DNA of 55,904 nucleotides from an uncultured Lachnospiraceae bacterium (GTDB lineage Bacteria; Bacillota; Clostridia; Lachnospirales; Lachnospiraceae). Below the pieces are notes generated by a model. That model was given only the letters and a program-made list of their open reading frames with translations, had not been told where the DNA came from and made no database searches. The stretch is taken from assembly GCA_964590945.1 (NCBI GenBank), contig CAZPXF010000001.1, positions 1 to 55,904 on the forward strand. Reading direction: 5' to 3'. Both the position numbers and the translations under genes were made by a program. This document shows positions 1 to 28,503 of the stretch, piece by piece (the first letter of the stretch is position 1; the number at the start of each line of letters is the position of its first letter).

Positions 1-98
1 GACTTTCAGCGGCTGGCATTCTGCTGTATCATTTTTTAAACTGCAGGATTTACGGGGAGGGGGAAGGGTAGATCAGGGTAGATCGGACGAACTAATTA

Positions 99-127
99 TT
101 GAAAACAAATTCATAATTTGCTATCAT
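99..127 (+). promoter_or_regulatory. putative sigma-A promoter for mutS
   Basis: TTGAAA (99-104), 17-nt spacer, TATCAT (122-127), about 55 nt upstream of the mutS ATG. Confidence 0.5.
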
Positions 128-183
128 AGGAACGGATATGGATTACCTTTTCCTGAAAAATGGATGCAATAAGGAGAGATATT

Positions 184-2832
184 ATGGCATTGACACCAAT
201 GATGAAGCAGTATATAAAGACGAAGGAAGAATATAAGGACTGTATCCTCTTCTACAGACTTGGAGATTTTTACGAAATGTTTTTCGATGACGCGGTTACG
301 GCGTCAAAAGAGCTGGAGATTACACTGACAGGGAAGGACTGCGGACTTGAAGAGCGCGCTCCGATGTGCGGCATTCCTTATCATGCTGTAGATAGCTATT
401 TGAATAAACTCGTTTCGCGCGGATACAAGGTGGCAATCTGTGAGCAGCTTGAGGATCCAAAGCAGGCAAAGGGAATCGTTAAGCGTGATGTGGTCCGGAT
501 CGTCACGCCGGGCACGAACCTGAGCATGTCCGCGCTGGATGAGACGAAGAACAATTATATCATGGGTGTTGCATATCTTGCCGATACCTTCGGCATCGCC
601 GCGGCTGACATCTCTACCGGGGATTTTCTTGTGACAGAGGTAGATTCCTGCCGGAAGCTGATGGATGAGATCATCAAATTTATGCCTGCGGAGATTGTCT
701 GCAACGAAGCGTTTTATTATATGAGCGGCGTGGATCTGGAGGATCTCCGGGATCGCCTTGGCATTTCCATTTCTTCGCTGGACAGCTGGTATTTTGACGA
801 TGAACTCTGCGTGAAAGCGATCAAAGCGCAGTTCCAGGTCGATTCCCTTGAGGGACTTGGACTTCAGGATTTCCCAAACGGCACAATCAGTACCGGGGCG
901 CTTTTACAGTACCTTCACGAGACGCAGAAGAGCGGGCTTTCCCAGCTTACGAATATTACATGTTATACAACCGGCAAATACATGCTTCTTGACAGCTCCA
1001 CAAGGCGGAATCTGGAGCTGACCGAGACGCTCCGCGAAAAGAATAAAAGGGGTTCTCTTTTGTGGGTGCTGGATAAGACCAAAACTGCGATGGGCGCCCG
1101 TATGCTCAGAAGCTACGTGGAGCAGCCTTTGATACAGAAGCAGGACATTGAGGAGAGGCTGGAAGCCGTTGATCTTTTAAAGAAGGAAGCGATCAGCCGG
1201 GAGGAGCTTCGGGAATATCTGACGCCGATCTATGATCTGGAACGCCTGATCAGCCGCATCACCTTCCAGTCAGCAAATCCGCGGGATCTGATTGCTTTTA
1301 AGCAGTCCCTTGAGATGCTTCCGCATATCCGGTATATTCTGGAAGGTCTGGACTGCCAGCTGCTGGATAAGATCAAGGCGGATCTGGATACAATGGAAGA
1401 TCTCTTCAAGCTGATCGATGAATCGATCCTCAACGAGCCTCCGCTTGCCATGAAAGAGGGAGGCATCATCAAGGATGGTTACAACGAAGAGGTCGATCGC
1501 CTGAGAACGGCGAAGACAGAAGGAAAGACGTGGCTGGCCAGGCTTGAGGCGGAGGAGCGGGAAAAGACCGGGATCAAGAACCTGAAGGTGAAGTTCAACA
1601 AGGTTTTCGGCTATTATATTGAAGTCACGAACTCCTACAGGAATCTTGTGCCGGAATACTATTTCCGCAAACAGACTCTTGCCAATGCAGAGCGCTACAG
1701 CATTCCAAAGCTCAAGGAGCTTGAGGACACGATCCTGGGCGCAGAGGAGAAACTGAACGGTCTGGAATATGAACTGTATTCCGGGGTGCGCGGCAGGATC
1801 GCCGACGAGGTCGCAAGAGTGCAGAAGACGGCAAAGGCGGTTGCAGGGCTGGACGCTCTCTGCTCCCTTGCGTTTGTCGCAGAGCGGAATCATTATGTAC
1901 GCCCGAAGATCAATGAAAAGGGATTGATCGATATTAAGAACGGACGGCATCCGGTCGTGGAAAAGATGATCCCGAACGAAATGTTCATTCCAAACGATAC
2001 ATATCTGGACGAGAAAAAGAACCGCATTTCCATCATCACCGGTCCGAACATGGCGGGAAAATCTACGTATATGCGTCAGACGGCGCTGATCGTACTGATG
2101 GCGCAGATGGGCTCCTTTGTTCCGGCGGACAGTGCAAAGATCGGGATCACCGACCGTATCTTTACCCGTGTCGGCGCTTCGGATGATCTGGCGTCCGGCC
2201 AGAGCACGTTCATGGTGGAGATGACGGAGGTTGCCAATATCCTTCGCAATGCGACGAAGAACAGCCTTCTCATTCTGGACGAGATCGGGCGCGGAACAAG
2301 TACCTTTGACGGGCTCAGTATCGCATGGGCTGTTGTGGAATATATCAGTAACAAACGTCTGCTTGGCGCTAAAACGCTGTTTGCCACCCATTACCATGAG
2401 CTGACAGAGCTGGAAGGGAAGATCGACAGCGTCAATAATTACTGCATTGCTGTAAAGGAAAAGGGGGATGACATTGTTTTCCTGCGTAAGATCGTCAAGG
2501 GCGGTGCAGATAAAAGCTACGGCGTACAGGTTGCCAGACTTGCCGGTGTACCGGATATTGTGATCGGACGCGCAAAGGAGATTGCCTCCGAGCTGAGCGA
2601 CGCCGATATTACAGCGAAGGTACAGAGCCTTTCCGTAACTGAGCCGGAACCGAAACGCAGAAAAACGAAAAAATACGACGAGGTTGATCTGGCGCAGATG
2701 TCGCTTTTTGACACGGTGAAGGACGACGACGTGCTGGAAGAACTGAAGAACCTCGACGTGACGCATATGACGCCGATGGACGCCATGAATACGCTGTACC
2801 GTTTGCAGAGCAAGCTGAAAAACAGGTGGTAG
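184..2832 (+). CDS. mutS: DNA mismatch repair protein MutS
   Basis: ORF 160-2832. ATG at 184 follows AAGGAGAG. N-terminus MALTPMMKQY..FYRLGDFYE, Walker A GPNMAGKST, STFMVEM, DEIGRGTST. Confidence 0.97.
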   Translation: MALTPMMKQYIKTKEEYKDCILFYRLGDFYEMFFDDAVTASKELEITLTGKDCGLEERAPMCGIPYHAVDSYLNKLVSRGYKVAICEQLEDPKQAKGIVKRDVVRIVTPGTNLSMSALDETKNNYIMGVAYLADTFGIAAADISTGDFLVTEVDSCRKLMDEIIKFMPAEIVCNEAFYYMSGVDLEDLRDRLGISISSLDSWYFDDELCVKAIKAQFQVDSLEGLGLQDFPNGTISTGALLQYLHETQKSGLSQLTNITCYTTGKYMLLDSSTRRNLELTETLREKNKRGSLLWVLDKTKTAMGARMLRSYVEQPLIQKQDIEERLEAVDLLKKEAISREELREYLTPIYDLERLISRITFQSANPRDLIAFKQSLEMLPHIRYILEGLDCQLLDKIKADLDTMEDLFKLIDESILNEPPLAMKEGGIIKDGYNEEVDRLRTAKTEGKTWLARLEAEEREKTGIKNLKVKFNKVFGYYIEVTNSYRNLVPEYYFRKQTLANAERYSIPKLKELEDTILGAEEKLNGLEYELYSGVRGRIADEVARVQKTAKAVAGLDALCSLAFVAERNHYVRPKINEKGLIDIKNGRHPVVEKMIPNEMFIPNDTYLDEKKNRISIITGPNMAGKSTYMRQTALIVLMAQMGSFVPADSAKIGITDRIFTRVGASDDLASGQSTFMVEMTEVANILRNATKNSLLILDEIGRGTSTFDGLSIAWAVVEYISNKRLLGAKTLFATHYHELTELEGKIDSVNNYCIAVKEKGDDIVFLRKIVKGGADKSYGVQVARLAGVPDIVIGRAKEIASELSDADITAKVQSLSVTEPEPKRRKTKKYDEVDLAQMSLFDTVKDDDVLEELKNLDVTHMTPMDAMNTLYRLQSKLKNRW

Positions 2833-2873
2833 ATAGCCAAGCTGGCAGGAGATACCAACGAAGGAGGAAGAGG

Positions 2874-4772
2874 ATGCAGAATATACAGGTCCTTGATCAG
2901 ATTACGATCGATAAGATAGCGGCAGGAGAAGTGATTGAACGCCCGTCCTCTATTGTGAAAGAGCTGGTAGAAAATTCCATAGACGCGGGGGCGGATACTG
3001 TCACGGTTGAGATCTCTGACGGGGGGATCTCCTTTATCCGTGTGACGGACAACGGCTCCGGCATTCCGGCCGATCAGGTGCGGACTGCATTTCTGCGCCA
3101 TTCCACAAGTAAGATCCGTTCGGCTGAGGATATTCAGAATCTCGGAACCCTTGGATTCCGTGGGGAGGCTCTCTCGAGCATCGCTGCGGTGACGCAGCTT
3201 GAGCTTCTGACGAAGACCGCCGATGAAGCGGCCGGAATACGATATGAGATCGCGGGTGGAAAGGAAACTGTCTTCGAGGATGCGGCTTCCTCCGATGGGA
3301 CAACGTTTCTCATCCGCCAGTTGTTTTATAACACGCCTGCCAGAAGAAAATTTTTGAAGACCTCCATCACGGAGGCGAGTCATGTGCAGGAGCTGATGAT
3401 CCGACTTGCCATGTCTCACCCGGAAGTCTCCTTTCAGTTTATCAACCAGGGACAGGTGAAGATGCACACCTCCGGGAACGGGAGACTGAAGGATGTGATC
3501 TACCATATTTACGGGCGCGACGTCACGAAAGAGCTGATCCCGGTGGATGCCGTATCGGAAGACGGAAGCGTCCGCATGACCGGATTTGCTGCAAGGCCGA
3601 CCGTATCCCGGGGCAACCGCAATTTTGAAAACTACTATGTCAACGGGCGCTACATGAAAAATAAGATCATTGCAAAAGGGATAGAGGATGCGTTTCAGGG
3701 GTATACCATGCAGCATAAATACCCGTTTACCGTCCTGAATCTCCAGGTGGACGGAAGCAAGGTGGACGTCAATGTGCACCCGCAGAAGATGGAAGTCCGT
3801 TTCAGTAACCAGCAATATCTGTATGATTTTATTTTCCGTACCCTGCGCGCATGTCTTGCACATAAGGACCTGATTCCGGAAGCAGCGCCTCCGGCAGCTC
3901 CGCCCATGGAGACGGAGACAGCCGCTTCGGCAAAGCCGCCCGCTCCGGTGGACGGCGTCCGGGAGAAAGGAAAAGATTACTTCATGGAGGAAATGAAAAA
4001 GCGTGTGACTGCCTACCATGCGCAGAATTCCCATGCGGAGGTCTATGAAAAGGATGCAGTCGCCCATGCAGAAGCCTCCATGGAGCGTTTTAAGAAAAAT
4101 ATCCGGCAGCCGAAGGAGACTCCTTTGCAGCAGGAGCCTGCGGGAGAACAGATGAATCTCTTCCAGGAGAAGTTCATCTCCAGCGAAGCGCGGCAGCATT
4201 TTCATTTGATCGGGCAGCTTTTTGAGACGTACTGGCTTGTTGAATATGAGGATCAGCTCTATATCATCGACCAGCACGCGGCGCACGAAAAGGTACTGTA
4301 CGAGAAGAAGATGGCGGAGATGAAGGAACACTCGGTCAGCTCTCAGTATTTAAGTCCTCCGCTGGTCTTAAATCTTACGATGCAGGAAGCCGCGGTGATC
4401 CGGGAATATCAGGAATATTTCCAAAAGAACGGATTTGAGATCGAACCCTTTGGCAGCGATTCCTTTGCCGTACGGGCAGTTCCGTCCGACCTGTCGGACA
4501 TAGCGACGAAAGAACTCCTTACCGAGATACTGAACGACCTGACGGACGATGTGAAAAGCGCCCTCAAACCAGAGCTGATCCTGGATAAGATTGCAAGCCG
4601 TTCCTGCAAAGCCGCTGTAAAGGGAAATTCCAGATTATCCGAAAAGGAAGCAGAGCATCTGATCTCCGAGCTTCTGGAACTGGAAAATCCTTACCATTGT
4701 CCGCATGGACGTCCGACGATCATCCGTATGTCCAGGCGGGAGCTGGAAAAGAAATTTAAGCGGATCGTTTAA
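2874..4772 (+). CDS. mutL: DNA mismatch repair endonuclease MutL
   Basis: ORF 2826-4772. ATG 2874 follows GAAGGAGGAAGAGG. GHKL N-terminus IAAGEVIERPSSIVKELVENSIDAGA. C-terminal DQHAAHEKVLYE endonuclease motif. Confidence 0.96.
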   Translation: MQNIQVLDQITIDKIAAGEVIERPSSIVKELVENSIDAGADTVTVEISDGGISFIRVTDNGSGIPADQVRTAFLRHSTSKIRSAEDIQNLGTLGFRGEALSSIAAVTQLELLTKTADEAAGIRYEIAGGKETVFEDAASSDGTTFLIRQLFYNTPARRKFLKTSITEASHVQELMIRLAMSHPEVSFQFINQGQVKMHTSGNGRLKDVIYHIYGRDVTKELIPVDAVSEDGSVRMTGFAARPTVSRGNRNFENYYVNGRYMKNKIIAKGIEDAFQGYTMQHKYPFTVLNLQVDGSKVDVNVHPQKMEVRFSNQQYLYDFIFRTLRACLAHKDLIPEAAPPAAPPMETETAASAKPPAPVDGVREKGKDYFMEEMKKRVTAYHAQNSHAEVYEKDAVAHAEASMERFKKNIRQPKETPLQQEPAGEQMNLFQEKFISSEARQHFHLIGQLFETYWLVEYEDQLYIIDQHAAHEKVLYEKKMAEMKEHSVSSQYLSPPLVLNLTMQEAAVIREYQEYFQKNGFEIEPFGSDSFAVRAVPSDLSDIATKELLTEILNDLTDDVKSALKPELILDKIASRSCKAAVKGNSRLSEKEAEHLISELLELENPYHCPHGRPTIIRMSRRELEKKFKRIV

Positions 4773-4805
4773 AAATAATGATTATTCTATCGTCAGGTGT
4801 TGTAT

Positions 4806-5765
4806 ATGGATAAAAAACCATTGATTATTCTTGCCGGCCCTACGGCCTCCGGCAAAAGTGCATGTTCCATTCAGCTTGCCAAAGCTCTTGGCGGATCCGT
4901 CATATCGGCGGATTCGATGCAGGTATATAAATATATGGATATCGGATCTGCAAAGATTTCGCCCGAAGAAATGGAAGGGATTCCACATTATCTGGTGGAT
5001 GAGCTGGATCCATCGGAGGAATTTCATGTCGTAAGATTCCAGCAGATGGCAAAAGCGGCGCTTCGTGACATTTACAGTCAAAACCGGGTTCCGATTGTCG
5101 CGGGAGGAACCGGATTCTATATCCAGGCTCTGTACCGCGATATTGATTTTACGGAGAATCCGGAGGATGTGGAGTTCCGCAGGCAGATGGAGGCCATCGC
5201 CAAAGAGGCGGACGGGGCGCTGAGACTGCATACTATGCTGACGGACTGCGACCCAAAGTCCGCAGAGGCGATCCACCCCAATAATACAAAGCGCGTGATC
5301 CGCGCCCTGGAATTCTATCATCTGACAGGGGAAAAGATATCCGGACACAATGAGAAAGAAAAGAAACGCACATCCCCATACAACACCGTATTTTTCGTGC
5401 TGACGGACGACAGGGAGAAGCTCTATGAAAATATAAACCTGCGTGTGGACAGGATGCTGGAAGCCGGACTTGTGGATGAAGTAAAACGTTTGAAGAATAT
5501 GGGTTACAGGCGTGACATGGTGTCCATGCAGGGACTTGGATATAAAGAGATCCTCGATCATCTGGATGGAAAATGTACGCTGGAGGAAGCCGTTTACCTT
5601 ATCAAACGCGACACGAGGCATTTTGCGAAGCGTCAGCTCACATGGTTTCGCCGTGAACCGGATGTGATCTGGGTAGATAAGCATGATTTTGGATATGATA
5701 ATGAGAAAATACTGGCGTTTATGCTGGATCAGATAAAGGAGAAAACAGGGATAGATGGACAATAA
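4806..5765 (+). CDS. miaA: tRNA dimethylallyltransferase MiaA
   Basis: ORF 4797-5765, ATG at 4806. P-loop GPTASGKS, DSMQVYKYMDIGSAK, RHFAKRQLTWFR. Confidence 0.93.
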   Translation: MDKKPLIILAGPTASGKSACSIQLAKALGGSVISADSMQVYKYMDIGSAKISPEEMEGIPHYLVDELDPSEEFHVVRFQQMAKAALRDIYSQNRVPIVAGGTGFYIQALYRDIDFTENPEDVEFRRQMEAIAKEADGALRLHTMLTDCDPKSAEAIHPNNTKRVIRALEFYHLTGEKISGHNEKEKKRTSPYNTVFFVLTDDREKLYENINLRVDRMLEAGLVDEVKRLKNMGYRRDMVSMQGLGYKEILDHLDGKCTLEEAVYLIKRDTRHFAKRQLTWFRREPDVIWVDKHDFGYDNEKILAFMLDQIKEKTGIDGQ

Positions 5766-7038
5766 GGATATGTTCGGGAGTCTTGGGATTTCCGATAAGG
5801 TATATGCATTCGGAGAAGAGATTTTAAAGGATTTAAAGGATCGGTTCGAGGCCATCGATGAGACGGCGGAATATAATCAGCTGAAGGTCATCCGTGCGAT
5901 GCAGGAAAACCGTGTAAATGCAGATTGCTTTCACTTTGTCAGCGGCTATGGTTACGATGATCCTGGTAGAGATACATTGGAAAAAGTGTATGCGTCCTGC
6001 TTTGGGACAGAGGCGGCTCTTGTGCGTCCGCAGATCACGTGCGGGACACACGCCCTTGCATTGACGCTCAGCGCAATTCTGCGTCCGGGAGATGAGCTTT
6101 TATCTCCGGTCGGCAAGCCTTACGACACGCTGGAAGAGGTCATCGGCATCCGTAAGTCGCCGGGATCTCTGGCGGAATACGGCGTCACCTATCGTCAGGT
6201 GGAGCTTCTTCCCGGCGGCGTTTTTGATCATGAGGCGATCCGGGGGGCGTTAAATGAGAGGACGAAACTTGTGACGATCCAGCGCTCCAAAGGATATCAG
6301 ACAAGACCGAGCTTTTCTGTCTCCCGGATCGGGGAGCTGATTTCATTTATAAAAGGAATCCGGCCGGACGTCATCTGCATGGTCGATAATTGTTACGGCG
6401 AGTTTGTGGAGCGCATCGAACCGTCGCAGGTCGGCGCCGATCTGATCGTCGGATCGCTTATTAAGAATCCGGGGGGCGGGCTTGCGCCGATCGGCGGGTA
6501 TGTGGCAGGACGTGAGGATCTGATCGAACTGTGCGGCTACCGCCTGACTTCGCCGGGACTTGGCCGCGAGGTCGGCGCCTCCCTCGGACTTATGCAATCC
6601 TTCTATCAGGGGTTCTTTATGGCTCCGGTTGTAACCGCATCCGCATTAAAGGGCGCGATCTTTGCCGCCAATATTTACGAAAAACTTGGCTTCGATGTTA
6701 TTCCGGACGGAAAAGAGAGCCGCCACGACATCATTCAGGCGGTAAAGCTTGGAACACCGGAGGGAGTGATCGAATTCTGTCAGGGGATTCAGGCGGCGGC
6801 TCCTGTTGACAGCTATGTTGCGCCGGAGCCGTGGGCGATGCCGGGCTATGACAGCGATGTGATCATGGCTGCGGGTACGTTTGTACAGGGTTCTTCTATT
6901 GAGCTGAGTGCAGATGGACCGATGAAGGAACCGTACGCCGTCTATTTTCAGGGAGGGCTTACATGGCCGCATGCGAAGTTTGGAATTTTGATGTCTCTGG
7001 AAAAACTGGCGCGCGCAGGACTTGTGACGCTCCAGTAG
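5755..7038 (+). CDS. ynbB: YnbB-type PLP enzyme (methionine gamma-lyase family, annotated 'aluminium resistance protein')
   Basis: 427 aa. GSLIKNPGGGLAPIGGY PLP-lysine region. N-terminus typical of the YnbB family. Start could instead be ATG 5770. Confidence 0.8.
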   Translation: MDNKDMFGSLGISDKVYAFGEEILKDLKDRFEAIDETAEYNQLKVIRAMQENRVNADCFHFVSGYGYDDPGRDTLEKVYASCFGTEAALVRPQITCGTHALALTLSAILRPGDELLSPVGKPYDTLEEVIGIRKSPGSLAEYGVTYRQVELLPGGVFDHEAIRGALNERTKLVTIQRSKGYQTRPSFSVSRIGELISFIKGIRPDVICMVDNCYGEFVERIEPSQVGADLIVGSLIKNPGGGLAPIGGYVAGREDLIELCGYRLTSPGLGREVGASLGLMQSFYQGFFMAPVVTASALKGAIFAANIYEKLGFDVIPDGKESRHDIIQAVKLGTPEGVIEFCQGIQAAAPVDSYVAPEPWAMPGYDSDVIMAAGTFVQGSSIELSADGPMKEPYAVYFQGGLTWPHAKFGILMSLEKLARAGLVTLQ

Positions 7039-10737: not shown

Positions 10738-11755
10738 TAATATATACGGTCTCGATTTCGGGACATATGAGATAAAGATTTATGATAAGAAACGTGATGA
10801 GATCTGGAAAGAAAAGGATGTCGTCGCAATCGAGAATGAGAAAGAGATCATTGCTATTGGAAATGATGCTTATGAGATGTACGAAAGGCAGCCTGTCAAT
10901 ATTCAGGTTGTATTTCCTATGAAGGAGGGTGCGATATCGAGGCTTTATGATATGCAGTTTTTTTTGAAAAACCTGCTGGAGATCCGGTTTCGCGGCCTGA
11001 TCCGCGGTTCGCGGTATGTTGTTGCAGTTCCGTCGGACGTTTCCGAAGTAGAGAAGCGGGCGTTCTACGATCTGGTTGTCCATTCCGCCGCGAAAGCAAA
11101 GGAAGTCCGCTATGTGGAAAGAGGCATCGCGGACGCCATCGGCCTTGGATTGGATGTGAAGAATGAAAAGGGGATTTTTATCGTCAATTTCGGCGGCGCA
11201 ACTACGGACATCTCCGTGTTGTCGTGCGGCGGACTTGTCCTGAACCGTCTGATCAAGAAGGGCGGTTCCCATTTGGATGATTCCATACGGACGTCTGTGA
11301 GAAACCGCTATAATTTTCTGATCGGGATGAAGACTGCCGAAGTCCTGCGCAAGGAGTTTGGTATTTCCGATGCGGACGTCAACCATACGCTCACTGTGAC
11401 CGGACGGGATCTGATGTCCGGTATGCCGGGCATGCAGGAAGTGACCGGCAATGTTGTAAAGGCTGCAATGAAGGAACAGCTGATCGAGTGCGCCAAGGCG
11501 ATTAAGCTCATGGTAGAGCGTACGCCTCCGGAGGTGAATACGGCGATCCGCGAAAAAGGAATTTATCTCACCGGCGGCGTTACAAATATGAAGCAGCTTG
11601 CCGCGTTTATCGAGCTGTTCACAGAGATACCGGTACATATGTCGGATCATCCGGAAAGCTGTGTAATCCACGGCCTCAAAAAAATCATTACTTCCAATGA
11701 ATACGATGCATTTACGTATTCAATGATGGATGAGAATTTCAGGTGGATGAAATAA
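10727..11755 (+). CDS. mreB: rod shape-determining protein MreB
   Basis: 342 aa actin-fold protein (GLDFGT, NFGGATTDISV, YLTGGV), followed by mreC and mreD. Confidence 0.9.
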   Translation: MFSNNIYGLDFGTYEIKIYDKKRDEIWKEKDVVAIENEKEIIAIGNDAYEMYERQPVNIQVVFPMKEGAISRLYDMQFFLKNLLEIRFRGLIRGSRYVVAVPSDVSEVEKRAFYDLVVHSAAKAKEVRYVERGIADAIGLGLDVKNEKGIFIVNFGGATTDISVLSCGGLVLNRLIKKGGSHLDDSIRTSVRNRYNFLIGMKTAEVLRKEFGISDADVNHTLTVTGRDLMSGMPGMQEVTGNVVKAAMKEQLIECAKAIKLMVERTPPEVNTAIREKGIYLTGGVTNMKQLAAFIELFTEIPVHMSDHPESCVIHGLKKIITSNEYDAFTYSMMDENFRWMK

Positions 11756-25626: not shown

Positions 25627-26073
25627 ATGAAATTTGTGATACAACGCGTGTCAGAAGCCTCTGTCACGGTAGATAATGAAATAATCGGACGGATTGGAAA
25701 GGGATTCATGGTTCTGATCGGAGTCAGCGATTCCGACGATGAAGCAGTCGCTGACAAAATGGTCAAAAAGATGATCCAGCTCCGTATCTTTGAAGATGAA
25801 AATGGCAAGACAAATCTTGCGCTTGCGGATGTAGACGGAGAGTTGCTTCTGATATCGCAGTTTACACTCTATGCAAACTGCAAAAAGGGCAACCGGCCAG
25901 GCTTTACAGAAGCCGGAAAGCCGGATAAAGCGAACGCATTATATGAATATATCATCCAAAAGTGCAAAGAGCATGTTGCAAATGTCCAAAAAGGAAGCTT
26001 TGGCGCTGATATGAAGGTGTCGCTTGTAAATGACGGGCCATTTACGATTATTCTTGATTCGGACGTAATATAG
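25627..26073 (+). CDS. dtd: D-aminoacyl-tRNA deacylase
   Basis: 148 aa. [27 protein letters not shown] motifs. Confidence 0.94.
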
Positions 26074-26085
26074 CGAAAATAATGA

Positions 26086-26124
26086 GCAGGAAGAATACAT
26101 AATATTTTTACGTAAACTTCCTGC
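26086..26124. other. candidate dif-like Xer recombination site (near-palindrome); may also act as the recombinase gene terminator
   Basis: GCAGGAAGAATACATAA-TATTT-TTACGTAAACTTCCTGC. Arms are 17 nt and match 14/17. Inner 11-mers match the B. subtilis dif XerD arm TTATGTAAACT at 10/11 and 9/11 (inverted). Sits exactly at the strand switch. Confidence 0.45.
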
Positions 26125-26131
26125 CTTATGA

Positions 26132-27193
26132 TCAGCTTTCGCGCAGCTTCACAGCGCCTGCAGCCATGCGGCGGCGTTCATCATCGATAGCAGCATAGTG
26201 CTTTTTCGTTGTATTGACGTCCTTATGGCCTAAAACATCTGCAACAAGATAAATATCGCCGGTTTCCTTGTAAAGATTTGTTCCGTATGTGCTCCGGAGC
26301 TTGTGCGGTGTAATCTTTTTGTTCGGCGTAACTTCGTGCGTGTATTTTTTAACCATGTTTTCAACGGCCTGAACGCCCATCCGTTTTTTCTGGGTGGACA
26401 AAAACAATGCATTTTCATGACCCTGTACCGGTTGTATTCCAAGGCGGCTCAATTCCAGATAATTTTTTAACGAAGCTGCGACTTCATCACCGAAATATAC
26501 GATCATTTCTGATCCGCCTTTTCGGATCACTTTGATTCCATTATTTTTAAAATCGATATCCTGAATATCGAGTCCAACGCATTCTGATACGCGGATCCCG
26601 GTACCCAAAAGCAGCGTCAGAATCGCAAGATCCCGGTATTTTGTCTTTTCGTAATAGACCTTTTTCTGCCCGGTCAGCGTATCTCCACAATGCTCCACAT
26701 AATCCAGTAGTTCGGCGACCTCGTCCGTATCCAGCCTTATAATTGCCTTATTATGAAGCTTCGGCATATCGACCATAACCGTTGGATTCGTCAGGATCAG
26801 CTGATGCTTGTAAAAGTATTTATAAAAGCTGCGGAGCGCCGACATCTTGCGGAAAAGTCCGCGCTCGCCGTTGGAGACAACCGTATCGCCTTCCTGATAA
26901 ACCTTCAGGTATTCCTGATATTCTTCGATGTCCAGAGGCTCCACATTGTCCAAATCAGACAAGGTAAACTGTGTCAGGTCATAATCCTTATATATGGGAT
27001 TATTCTGCTTTAAAAAGCGGAAAAAAACGCGTATATCATATGCGTAGGAAATCCTTGTCCTGGCAGATGTTGTCGGCTCAATGGCGCGGAAATAATCCTT
27101 CGCAAAGGGAGGAAGTGTCTTTAAAACCTCGCGAAGCCGTAATGTATTATCAATGTAGGTCTGTTCATGAAATGTCTTTTCCCTGTTACTCAT
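26132..27193 (-). CDS. Xer-type tyrosine recombinase (long, XerS/XerH size class)
   Basis: 353 aa. SAM-like N-domain. Catalytic R (GIRVSE), RKGG beta-hairpin Lys, HKLRST, LGH, HY. Flanked only by housekeeping genes. Confidence 0.85.
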   Translation of the reverse strand: MSNREKTFHEQTYIDNTLRLREVLKTLPPFAKDYFRAIEPTTSARTRISYAYDIRVFFRFLKQNNPIYKDYDLTQFTLSDLDNVEPLDIEEYQEYLKVYQEGDTVVSNGERGLFRKMSALRSFYKYFYKHQLILTNPTVMVDMPKLHNKAIIRLDTDEVAELLDYVEHCGDTLTGQKKVYYEKTKYRDLAILTLLLGTGIRVSECVGLDIQDIDFKNNGIKVIRKGGSEMIVYFGDEVAASLKNYLELSRLGIQPVQGHENALFLSTQKKRMGVQAVENMVKKYTHEVTPNKKITPHKLRSTYGTNLYKETGDIYLVADVLGHKDVNTTKKHYAAIDDERRRMAAGAVKLRES

Positions 27194-27298: not shown

Positions 27299-27327
27299 AA
27301 AATAGCATATCCAGATGCCTGTGTCAA
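27299..27327 (-). promoter_or_regulatory. putative sigma-A promoter of the recombinase gene
   Basis: On the minus strand, TTGACA (27327-27322), 17 nt, TATTTT (27304-27299). AGATATATCT palindrome (27281-27290) lies just downstream. Confidence 0.5.
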
Positions 27328-27382: not shown

Positions 27383-27715
27383 TTAAGGATTCTCCGATGT
27401 ACATACAACAGATAAATAATTCCCTTCGATCAATGTATCGGATTCCAGATTGTTCAAATCCCTGAGTTCATCCATATACTGGTCAATATCTGTATAGTCT
27501 TCCGTCATATAGCGGTTCGCAATACTCCACAGGGAATCACCCTTTTCAATCTGAACGCTCCGGTAAAGCTTATCATCAGAAAAACTGTTCTCATGCGCGG
27601 CAGACTTAAAATACAGGAAGGAAACTGTAATAAAACAGAGAAGTATAAAGCCTGAAATTAATAATACAGCTCTCTTCAACATTGCATTTCTTCTTCTGAT
27701 ACTCTTTGTTCTCAT
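27383..27715 (-). CDS. yneA: YneA-like LysM membrane protein (probable SOS cell-division inhibitor)
   Basis: 110 aa. N-terminal TM plus LysM (IEKGDSLWSIANRY..LNNL). Divergent from lexA with LexA boxes in its promoter, as for B. subtilis yneA. Confidence 0.75.
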   Translation of the reverse strand: MRTKSIRRRNAMLKRAVLLISGFILLCFITVSFLYFKSAAHENSFSDDKLYRSVQIEKGDSLWSIANRYMTEDYTDIDQYMDELRDLNNLESDTLIEGNYLSVVCTSENP

Positions 27716-27749: not shown

Positions 27750-27761
27750 GAACATCCGTTC
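27750..27761. promoter_or_regulatory. LexA (Cheo-type) box
   Basis: GAACATCCGTTC = GAAC-N4-GTTC, just downstream of the yneA-like -10. Confidence 0.75.
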
Positions 27762-27773
27762 CCTTTCCATTAC

Positions 27774-27802
27774 ATTATATTGCACGAACATGTGTTTGTC
27801 AA
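27774..27802 (-). promoter_or_regulatory. consensus sigma-A promoter of the yneA-like gene
   Basis: On the minus strand, TTGACA (27802-27797), 17 nt, TATAAT (27779-27774). A LexA box occupies the spacer. Confidence 0.75.
27785..27798. promoter_or_regulatory. LexA box
   Basis: CGAACATGTGTTTG (CGAAC-N4-GTTTG), overlapping the spacer and -35 of the yneA-like promoter. Confidence 0.75.
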
Positions 27803-27808
27803 GAAAAT

Positions 27809-27835
27809 CGAACATACTTTCTAAACATTTGTTTG
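27809..27835. promoter_or_regulatory. two weaker adjacent LexA-like boxes upstream of lexA
   Basis: CGAACATACTTTCT (27809-27822) and AAACATTTGTTTG (27823-27835). Each keeps one good half-site. Confidence 0.5.
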
Positions 27836-27885: not shown

Positions 27886-28503
27886 ATGACTAAGGGAAAA
27901 ATCAGCAAGAAGCAAAGTGAGATATTAGAATATATAAAAGAGGAAATACTGGCGAAGGGTTATCCGCCTTCCGTACGCGAGATCTGTGAAGCCGTGCATT
28001 TGAAATCAACGTCTTCCGTACACTCCCATCTTGAGACGCTGGAGAAGAACGGCTATATACGCAGAGATGCAACGAAGCCGCGCGCAATAGAGATTATGGA
28101 TGATTCCTTTCATCTGTCGCGCCGTGAGATGGTTCAGGTGCCGATCGTCGGCAATGTTGCGGCAGGACTGCCGATCCTGGCGGAACAGAATATTTCCGAC
28201 TACTTCCCTCTTCCGGCTGACTATATGCCGAAGAACGAAGTGTTCATGCTGAAGGTGCGCGGGGAAAGTATGATCAATATCGGAATTCTTGATGGGGATT
28301 TAGTTCTTGTGGAGAGAAGTGATACAGCATCGAATGGCGATGTTGTGGTTGCTCTCATCGAGGATGGCGCTACAGTCAAGACCTTTTATAAGGAGAATGG
28401 CTGTTACCGTCTGCAGCCTGAGAATGATTCGATGGATCCGATCATTGTTCAGGAAGCAGCTATTGCCGGTCAGGTGAGAGGCGTATTTCGGTTTCTCCGT
28501 TAG
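27886..28503 (+). CDS. lexA: SOS repressor LexA
   Basis: 205 aa after AGGAGGA. wHTH N-terminus (GYPPSVREI), VAAG cleavage site, S24 peptidase Ser (GESM) and Lys (ATVKTF). Confidence 0.96.
   Translation: MTKGKISKKQSEILEYIKEEILAKGYPPSVREICEAVHLKSTSSVHSHLETLEKNGYIRRDATKPRAIEIMDDSFHLSRREMVQVPIVGNVAAGLPILAEQNISDYFPLPADYMPKNEVFMLKVRGESMINIGILDGDLVLVERSDTASNGDVVVALIEDGATVKTFYKENGCYRLQPENDSMDPIIVQEAAIAGQVRGVFRFLR

Follow-up and report, generated by a model that had tools for sequence, protein, structure and literature searches.

Chromosome dimers are converted into monomers at cell division by Xer-type tyrosine recombinases, which add a crossover at the dif site. In the canonical layout, dif is a 28-bp sequence consisting of an XerC arm, a 6-bp centre and an XerD arm, and the Firmicutes XerC/XerD system is represented by B. 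subtilis CodV/RipX with dif ACTTCCTAGAATATATATTATGTAAACT. In Streptococcus and Lactococcus, the recombinase is XerS, a protein of about 355 residues with an N-terminal extension and a linker insertion, and its site is difSL (PMC1914069, PMC2965235). difSL is 31 bp long, has an 11-bp centre and lies immediately upstream of xerS in all species examined (PMC1914069). In Helicobacter and Campylobacter, XerH (354-362 aa) is encoded by a gene genetically linked to the near-palindromic site difH (PMC3325230, PMC5241119). Moreover, integrase-less filamentous phages of the CTXphi type integrate at dif by exploiting Xer (PMC5357621). For Clostridia, a survey of dif predictions covered no Lachnospiraceae and gave no prediction for two Clostridium genomes (PMC3025954), and it puts the predicted C. 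botulinum sites 140-175 degrees away from where the skew shifts (supplement 2, PMC3025954). Because these predictions are missing or off the terminus, the dif sites of Clostridia have never been well defined. Those of abundant gut Clostridia are not yet defined, nor are the corresponding Xer enzymes, and the literature searched contained no description of a site or recombinase such as those reported here for Lachnospiraceae.

The window studied here is a stretch of 55,904 nucleotides (56 kb) from an uncultured Lachnospiraceae bacterium. It contains a dif-like 39-nt palindrome, GCAGGAAGAATACATAATATTTTTACGTAAACTTCCTGC, at positions 26086..26124. The palindrome occupies most of a 58-nt gap between two converging stop codons. 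One belongs to dtd (D-aminoacyl-tRNA deacylase, + strand, 25627..26073; TIGR00256 199 bits, above cut-off), the last gene of the left + block. The other belongs to the gene of a 353-aa Xer-family tyrosine recombinase (- strand, 26132..27193), whose 3′ end faces the site from 7 nt away. Sequence and gene coordinates agree with the first-pass annotation in placing the palindrome in this gap beside the recombinase gene. The 39-mer is made of a 27-bp dif-like core (26092..26118) and an outer 8-bp G+C-rich stem. Within the core, an 11-mer left arm, AGAATACATAA (26092-26102), and an 11-mer right arm, TTACGTAAACT (26108-26118), flank a 5-nt centre, TATTT, composed of A/T only (26103-26107).

Reference dif sequences of Bacillus and Staphylococcus were taken from the supplement of PMC3025954. 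As had been claimed from the sequence, the right arm matches the Bacillus XerD arm, TTATGTAAACT, at 10/11 positions, and the reverse complement of the left arm matches it at 9/11. A lone 11-mer at 10/11 is not above chance, since 0.62 occurrences are expected per window. The composite 11-N5-11 motif with at most 3 mismatches was found once in the window, at the core, and in 0 of 100 shuffles. A matrix built from the sites of relatives scored 28.2 bits at the site as compared to 4.0 bits at the next best place of the window, so that both the matrix scan and the composite pattern give a single site in 56 kb. The canonical 28-bp dif sequences of B. subtilis, S. aureus and E. coli, as well as difSL, were searched for in the window and none was found; the best matches had at least 8 mismatches, and the best difSL-like match had 9. 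The element departs from the canonical layout in having a 5-nt centre and two arms of XerD type. Operators of LexA, Fur/PerR, Rex, CodY and BirA were also considered, and none is known to suit the order and spacing of the arms.

The cumulative G-C curve of the whole window reaches its maximum at 26093, inside the 27-bp core. The 26 kb to the left have a GC skew of about +0.13 and the 30 kb to the right one of about -0.15; genes lie on the + strand to the left of the site and mostly on the - strand to its right. The palindrome had been described as lying at the exact point of the strand switch, and the position of the maximum, with skew and gene strand reversed on either side, bears this out. 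The site thus has the terminus location, at a GC-skew switch, that is expected of dif. Many strand-biased 7/8-mers also flip at the site, a signal that is inseparable from gene-strand bias.

In order to place the site in its family context, 80 species-level Lachnospiraceae loci around the orthologous recombinase gene were compared. In nearly all of them, whether or not a site was seen, the 3′ end of the orthologue lies at a + to - skew change, and in four loci of Faecalicatena/Muricomes type the skew maximum is exactly at the xer end (±10-kb views). The recombinase gene is anchored at the terminus family-wide. Twenty-six sites from these loci were aligned and gave the consensus AGTTTACATAA-(A/T)5-TTATGTAAACT. 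Positions ±3 to ±13 carry high information and those outside this range little; the inner 11-mers are thus conserved and the outer stem is not, in agreement with the alignment check that had been proposed for orthologous loci. The consensus arm is identical to the canonical Firmicutes XerD arm (11/11), and the arms are symmetric in most of the aligned sites. The first-pass annotation had treated the 5-nt spacing as a caveat. The spacing is truly 5 nt, one base less than in canonical dif, but it is no oddity of one copy, since about 23 of 25 sites from related loci share it. Overall, the dif-like element is real and conserved, and it is located at a terminus-type skew switch beside a gene of the Xer family.

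Scanning with the matrix placed a site within about 5 kb of the orthologue in 20 of the 80 species, all 20 loci scoring above anything in a reversed-sequence control; the pattern search did so in about 23. By chance, a single-copy site would be expected within that distance in about 0.3% of cases. In nine cases, window included, the recombinase stop is followed by the site after 0-70 nt; at several other loci it lies just past the 3′ end of lexA. It is mostly found between converging genes and is identical in contigs of the same species. Many orthologous loci, nearest relatives included, have no recognisable site within 4-10 kb. In these nearest relatives (88% identical recombinase; L212 2150-2160, L213, L214), the xer and dtd stops abut without a site, and dtd is followed by an additional ttcA-like gene. 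Between these close species, the gap of 58 nt that carries the palindrome represents an insertion or deletion. In Faecalicatena/Muricomes, the xer/dtd gap holds an ordinary G+C-rich terminator and the motif is absent within 10 kb. The linkage between gene and site is therefore loose, a site being nearby in only about a quarter of the species. When the nearest relatives were scanned with a relaxed matrix, the weak matches in L003 and L222 fell inside the promoter of a cytidylate-kinase-like gene and were set aside.

The consensus was also used to scan metagenome contigs, which gave 120 loci from many environments. Twenty-seven of these encode a tyrosine recombinase, and the recombinases fall into three groups. 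About 19 are orthologues of the window protein. Two others, in L123 and L196, are bona fide XerS proteins (398.4 bits in L123), and their genes are followed by the motif at a distance of 133-142 nt. In both contigs (L123 4543, L196 1448; 36-39% G+C), the motif is a 27-bp palindrome with XerD-type arms beside xerS at a strand switch. The third group, in L126, L167, L133 and L179, is a clade of XerC-like proteins of 325-338 aa. Three of their genes end about 55-90 nt from the motif, and in L179 the distance is about 1 kb. Genes converge on the site, near a local skew maximum, in L123, L196 and L126. L196 has a proper terminator ahead of the motif; because of this separate terminator, the motif is not itself the terminator there. 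No difSL-like sequence was found upstream of xerS in L196. The same upstream region (L196 225-275) carries a separate palindrome, AATTACGT-N14-ACGTAATT, which may be an operator.

Contigs L224-L227, from an uncultured lineage of Clostridia, carry a gene for a 323-332-aa XerC-like protein followed after 14-32 nt by the site. The site is close to the skew maximum in L224/L225 (1-558, 10001-11030), and the site entry of L226/L227 is at 11013. In L224, both arms bear the same change (GGTTAACATAA / TTATGTTAACC). Among the 46 motif-bearing metagenome contigs with enough flank, which form an unbiased set, only 9 show a skew flip within 3 kb of the motif. Predicted dif sites can lie up to about 1% of the genome, that is tens of kb, from the skew switch (PMC3025954), and we therefore consider this count indecisive.

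In Lachnospiraceae-like relatives, three filamentous-phage-like prophages were found next to the site or the recombinase gene. They encode a rolling-circle Rep, a Zot-like ATPase, a small coat protein and an Arc-like repressor, and no integrase was found in the prophage sequence covered by the L203/L204, L207 and L048 contigs. In L203/L204 (L204 1-9100), the prophage boundary is at the site, which precedes a 61% identical orthologue by 156 nt. The L207 prophage (1-6000) likewise stops at the site, and host dtd (62% identity) is found beyond it. In L048 (400-3980), a related prophage lies directly upstream of the orthologue, at a junction without a clean site. One junction was covered per prophage, and no second dif-like junction was found on the contigs examined; the window itself holds no such prophage. 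With these differences, the arrangement is like that of Xer-exploiting mobile elements such as CTXphi (PMC5357621), in that filamentous-phage-like prophages lie directly at the site in relatives. Prophages abutting the motif, together with the known behaviour of phages that exploit Xer, lead us to read the motif as a Xer recombination site; this is the strongest indirect evidence.

Taken together, the conservation of the element, its linkage to recombinase genes, its presence beside other Xer clades at strand switches and the prophage junctions make dif function the best reading. We consider it probable that 26092-26118 is the dif site of this chromosome, in a symmetric variant form with inverted 11-bp arms of XerD type around a 5-nt A/T centre. 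Judged by the sites collected here, this predicted symmetric form is found in Lachnospiraceae and in other Clostridia.

We then considered the neighbouring protein. It contains a Phage_integrase domain (Pfam PF00589, 124.8 bits) and a SAM-like N-terminal domain. The catalytic residues of tyrosine recombinases (R-K-H-R-H/W-Y) are present: R201, H297, R300, H323 and Y333 are invariant in the alignment, and K225, within RKGG, is the lysine at the expected catalytic position in the window protein, its column being absent from the list of invariant and near-invariant positions. The best NCBIfam match is XerS (NF003462 equivalog), at 203.8 bits and below its cut-off of 267. Scores were also below cut-off for XerA (176 bits; cut-off 220), XerC (TIGR02224, 173.4 bits; cut-off 335) and XerD (TIGR02225, 162.2 bits; cut-off 329.6). 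Identity is 27% to the bona fide XerS of L196 and 33% to the Clostridia XerC-like clade. Alignment showed that the 353-aa protein has the N-terminal extension and the inter-domain insertion of XerS type, both absent from XerD. It shares with XerS an N-terminal block, LxxLLxxLPxY/F, and an insertion before the RD...LLLGTGxR motif, and it lacks one further XerS insertion. By sequence, the nearest solved structures are those of XerD and XerA; no XerH structure was matched at E≤1e-10. Orthologues with 66-88% identity are found throughout Lachnospiraceae. From these comparisons, the protein is predicted to be a Xer-family recombinase that is XerS-like in length and insertions.

A yneA-like LysM gene of the SOS cell-division inhibitor family precedes the recombinase gene on the same strand (- strand, 27383..27715; NCBIfam YneA 54.4 bits with a cut-off of 60; Pfam LysM), and lexA (27886..28503, + strand; TIGR00498 230.5 bits, above cut-off) is divergent from yneA. 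The divergent control region (27750..27821) contains a promoter and three GAAC-N4-GTTC motifs, read from the sequence at 27750-27761, 27786-27797 and 27810-27821, which we take to resemble the Firmicutes LexA box. The second of them lies inside a 12/12 sigma-70-type promoter for yneA found by promoter scan (minus strand, 27802..27774). The gap of 190 nt between yneA and xer has a promoter-like site of its own (27327..27299). Given these motifs, the recombinase gene, 190 nt downstream of yneA, may be SOS-induced. In the family, orthologues usually follow a yneA-like LysM gene, itself divergent from lexA; lexA is within 4 kb of the recombinase gene in 43 of the 80 loci, and the order lexA / yneA-xer is kept.

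Compared to XerS/difSL, the locus has in common a recombinase of about the same length with the N-terminal extension and linker insertion, a gene that adjoins its presumed site at the terminus, and inverted, mutually similar arms. It differs in that the protein is only 27% identical to XerS and scores under the curated XerS cut-off. In addition, the site is a 27-bp sequence with a 5-nt centre and XerD-type arms, as compared to 31 bp with an 11-bp centre, and it lies 3′ of the gene rather than immediately 5′. Unlike that of difSL, its linkage to the gene is not constant across the family, and the family also possesses XerD. With the Firmicutes XerC/XerD-dif system, the locus shares an arm whose consensus is the XerD arm, the terminus location, the presence of XerD in the family and abutting prophages without integrase in the sequence covered. 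However, the left arm is a copy of the XerD arm and not a distinct XerC arm, the centre has 5 nt instead of 6 for a total of 27 bp, and the recombinase next to the site scores far below the cut-off for canonical XerC (173 bits versus 335). With XerH/difH, it shares the large size of the recombinase and the genetic linkage of its gene to a near-palindromic site, whereas the arm sequences are unrelated and, as mentioned above, the XerH structure is not among the matches at E≤1e-10.

No second recombinase was found in the window, nor across roughly 0.8 Mb of sequence from orthologous loci. In L224/L225, a second recombinase gene lies next to spoIIM, about 9 kb from the XerC-like gene and its perfectly palindromic site. 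Of its product, the contigs cover a 186-aa fragment whose best score is with the XerD model (172.7 bits, model positions 2-172). A search with this fragment recovered proteins from Lachnospiraceae, Coprococcus and Catenibacillus named XerD by NCBI, five of which pass the curated XerD cut-off (339-362 bits versus 329.6); one is found in a NUDIX-xerD context. The L224/L225 arrangement implies that symmetric arms and adjacency do not point to one recombinase only.

The first-pass annotation had proposed a single-recombinase module. This claim is not supported, as XerD exists in the family, as the same palindrome coexists with an XerD-like fragment in a sister lineage and as the gene-site linkage is loose. 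In its explicit form, the 353-aa recombinase alone would bind both arms as a homotetramer and resolve dimers as in XerS/difSL or XerH/difH. Such a mechanism would fit well with the symmetry of the arms in most sites, with the fact that gene and site are neighbours in the window as well as in 8 further species, and with a size, N-terminal extension and inter-domain insertion of XerS type in a protein whose best NCBIfam match is XerS. It would also fit with the bona fide XerS genes of L123 and L196, which stand beside the same 27-bp palindrome at a strand switch. It is harder to reconcile with the canonical XerD of Lachnospiraceae, with the equally palindromic site of L224 next to an XerC-like gene and in company of an XerD-like gene fragment, with the 27% identity to XerS and a score below the XerS cut-off, and with the lack of gene-site linkage in most sampled species. 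The XerS-like insertions and the XerS loci with the motif keep a lone recombinase alive as a minority reading, which we regard as rather doubtful. At the opposite end, dif could be served by canonical XerD and a partner encoded elsewhere, the adjacent recombinase having an SOS- or terminus-linked role. Both arms are of XerD type, XerD is present in the family, the recombinase gene usually stays with lexA and yneA while the site moves about, and many species have the gene at the switch with no site nearby. However, the site is found at the 3′ end of genes from three Xer clades, a recurrence not easily accounted for by an irrelevant neighbour, and no canonical XerC was seen among the loci examined. 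We hold this division of roles to be unlikely.

Another explanation does without recombination. The 39-mer is predicted to fold as RNA with -19.4 kcal/mol (z -7.4), and both flanking genes have their 3′ ends beside it. The outer 8-bp G+C-rich stem, GCAGGAAG/CTTCCTGC (within 26086..26124), is species-specific, without conservation in other species among the 26 aligned sites, and may function as the terminator hairpin of xer, dtd or both. A terminator consensus scan of the window did not flag the palindrome, and no adequate T-run is present; the tail on the xer strand is TCATTATTTTCG and that on the dtd strand is poor. Rfam gave no match in the region. Palindromy extends by at least 3 pairs beyond the arms in 37 of 136 non-redundant sites (L001-L200), as compared to 4.4 expected. 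The additional palindromic sequence is species-specific, and at some sites the palindrome reaches 20-25 nt per arm (L058, L015, L047, L081). We know of no such extension as a property of dif, and it suggests that selection or mutation acts on the hairpin. Possible causes are a hairpin that doubles as terminator between converging genes, or template-switch mutation perfecting a quasi-palindrome, a process known from E. coli. The element could thus be a bidirectional terminator or a structural palindrome without a role in recombination, its likeness to dif being incidental. The A-run and T-run that flank the L224 palindrome, as in a bidirectional terminator, would fit with such a role, as would the stable fold, the palindromy beyond the arms and the ordinary G+C-rich terminator that occupies the same gap in L217, L219 and L012. 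On the other hand, the 11-mers are conserved across genera and environments, unlike terminator stems, the L196 motif comes after a separate terminator, and the window offers no adequate T-run. The prophage junctions and the exact coincidence with the skew maximum would be left unexplained as well, and we judge a hairpin without recombination function to be quite improbable.

Keeping to dif function as the preferred reading, recombinase protomers would bind both arms, two sister sites being brought together at the septum, presumably in an FtsK-dependent manner. Strand exchange would take place across the central 5-7 bp. To our knowledge, no characterised Xer overlap is as short as a 5-nt centre; with the usual stagger of 6-8 bp, cleavage would probably occur one base inside each arm. 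As catalyst, or as one of two catalysts, the adjacent 353-aa XerS-like recombinase is the most likely candidate. The outer stem would put the site at the top of a hairpin, which may also terminate both converging transcripts. Extended to the group, we tentatively propose that Lachnospiraceae and wider Clostridia resolve dimers at a symmetric 27-bp dif with one specificity on both arms. A XerS-related enzyme would act there alone or in place of XerC beside XerD, with the hairpin also terminating transcription.

A symmetric 27-bp dif with a 5-nt centre raises the question of how the order and direction of strand exchange are set. Gut metagenomes can be searched with the 27-bp motif for termini and for phages that exploit Xer, and the site offers natural marker excision for Lachnospiraceae genetics. 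The value of these observations is moderate, the type of system being already known.

Several loci carry more than one site, which speaks against the single copy per chromosome expected of dif. In L155, two full sites (205 and 7469; centres TTATG and TGTTG) lie 7.2 kb apart and enclose lexA, the gene of a large secreted protein, aspS, an acetyltransferase gene and the recombinase gene, a block that could be inverted or deleted if the two sites recombined. Tandem pairs of full sites 55-800 bp apart were observed in L018 (5059/5159), L024 (7248/7307), L025 (5114/5169) and L179 (1921/2718), both copies in L025 having the same unusual arm, TTCTGTAAAT. Such pairs may be leftovers of integration and excision events. 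Variant sites were seen in L078-L080, L030 and L044, some with one arm TTAYRGTTAAT, close to the E. coli XerD arm, others with a 1-nt insertion in one arm. Finally, a 5-kb phage contig encoding an Erf-like protein (L205 3960-4050) contains four direct copies of GTTTACATAAT and one inverted copy, repeats that resemble a putative iteron array made from the dif half-site.
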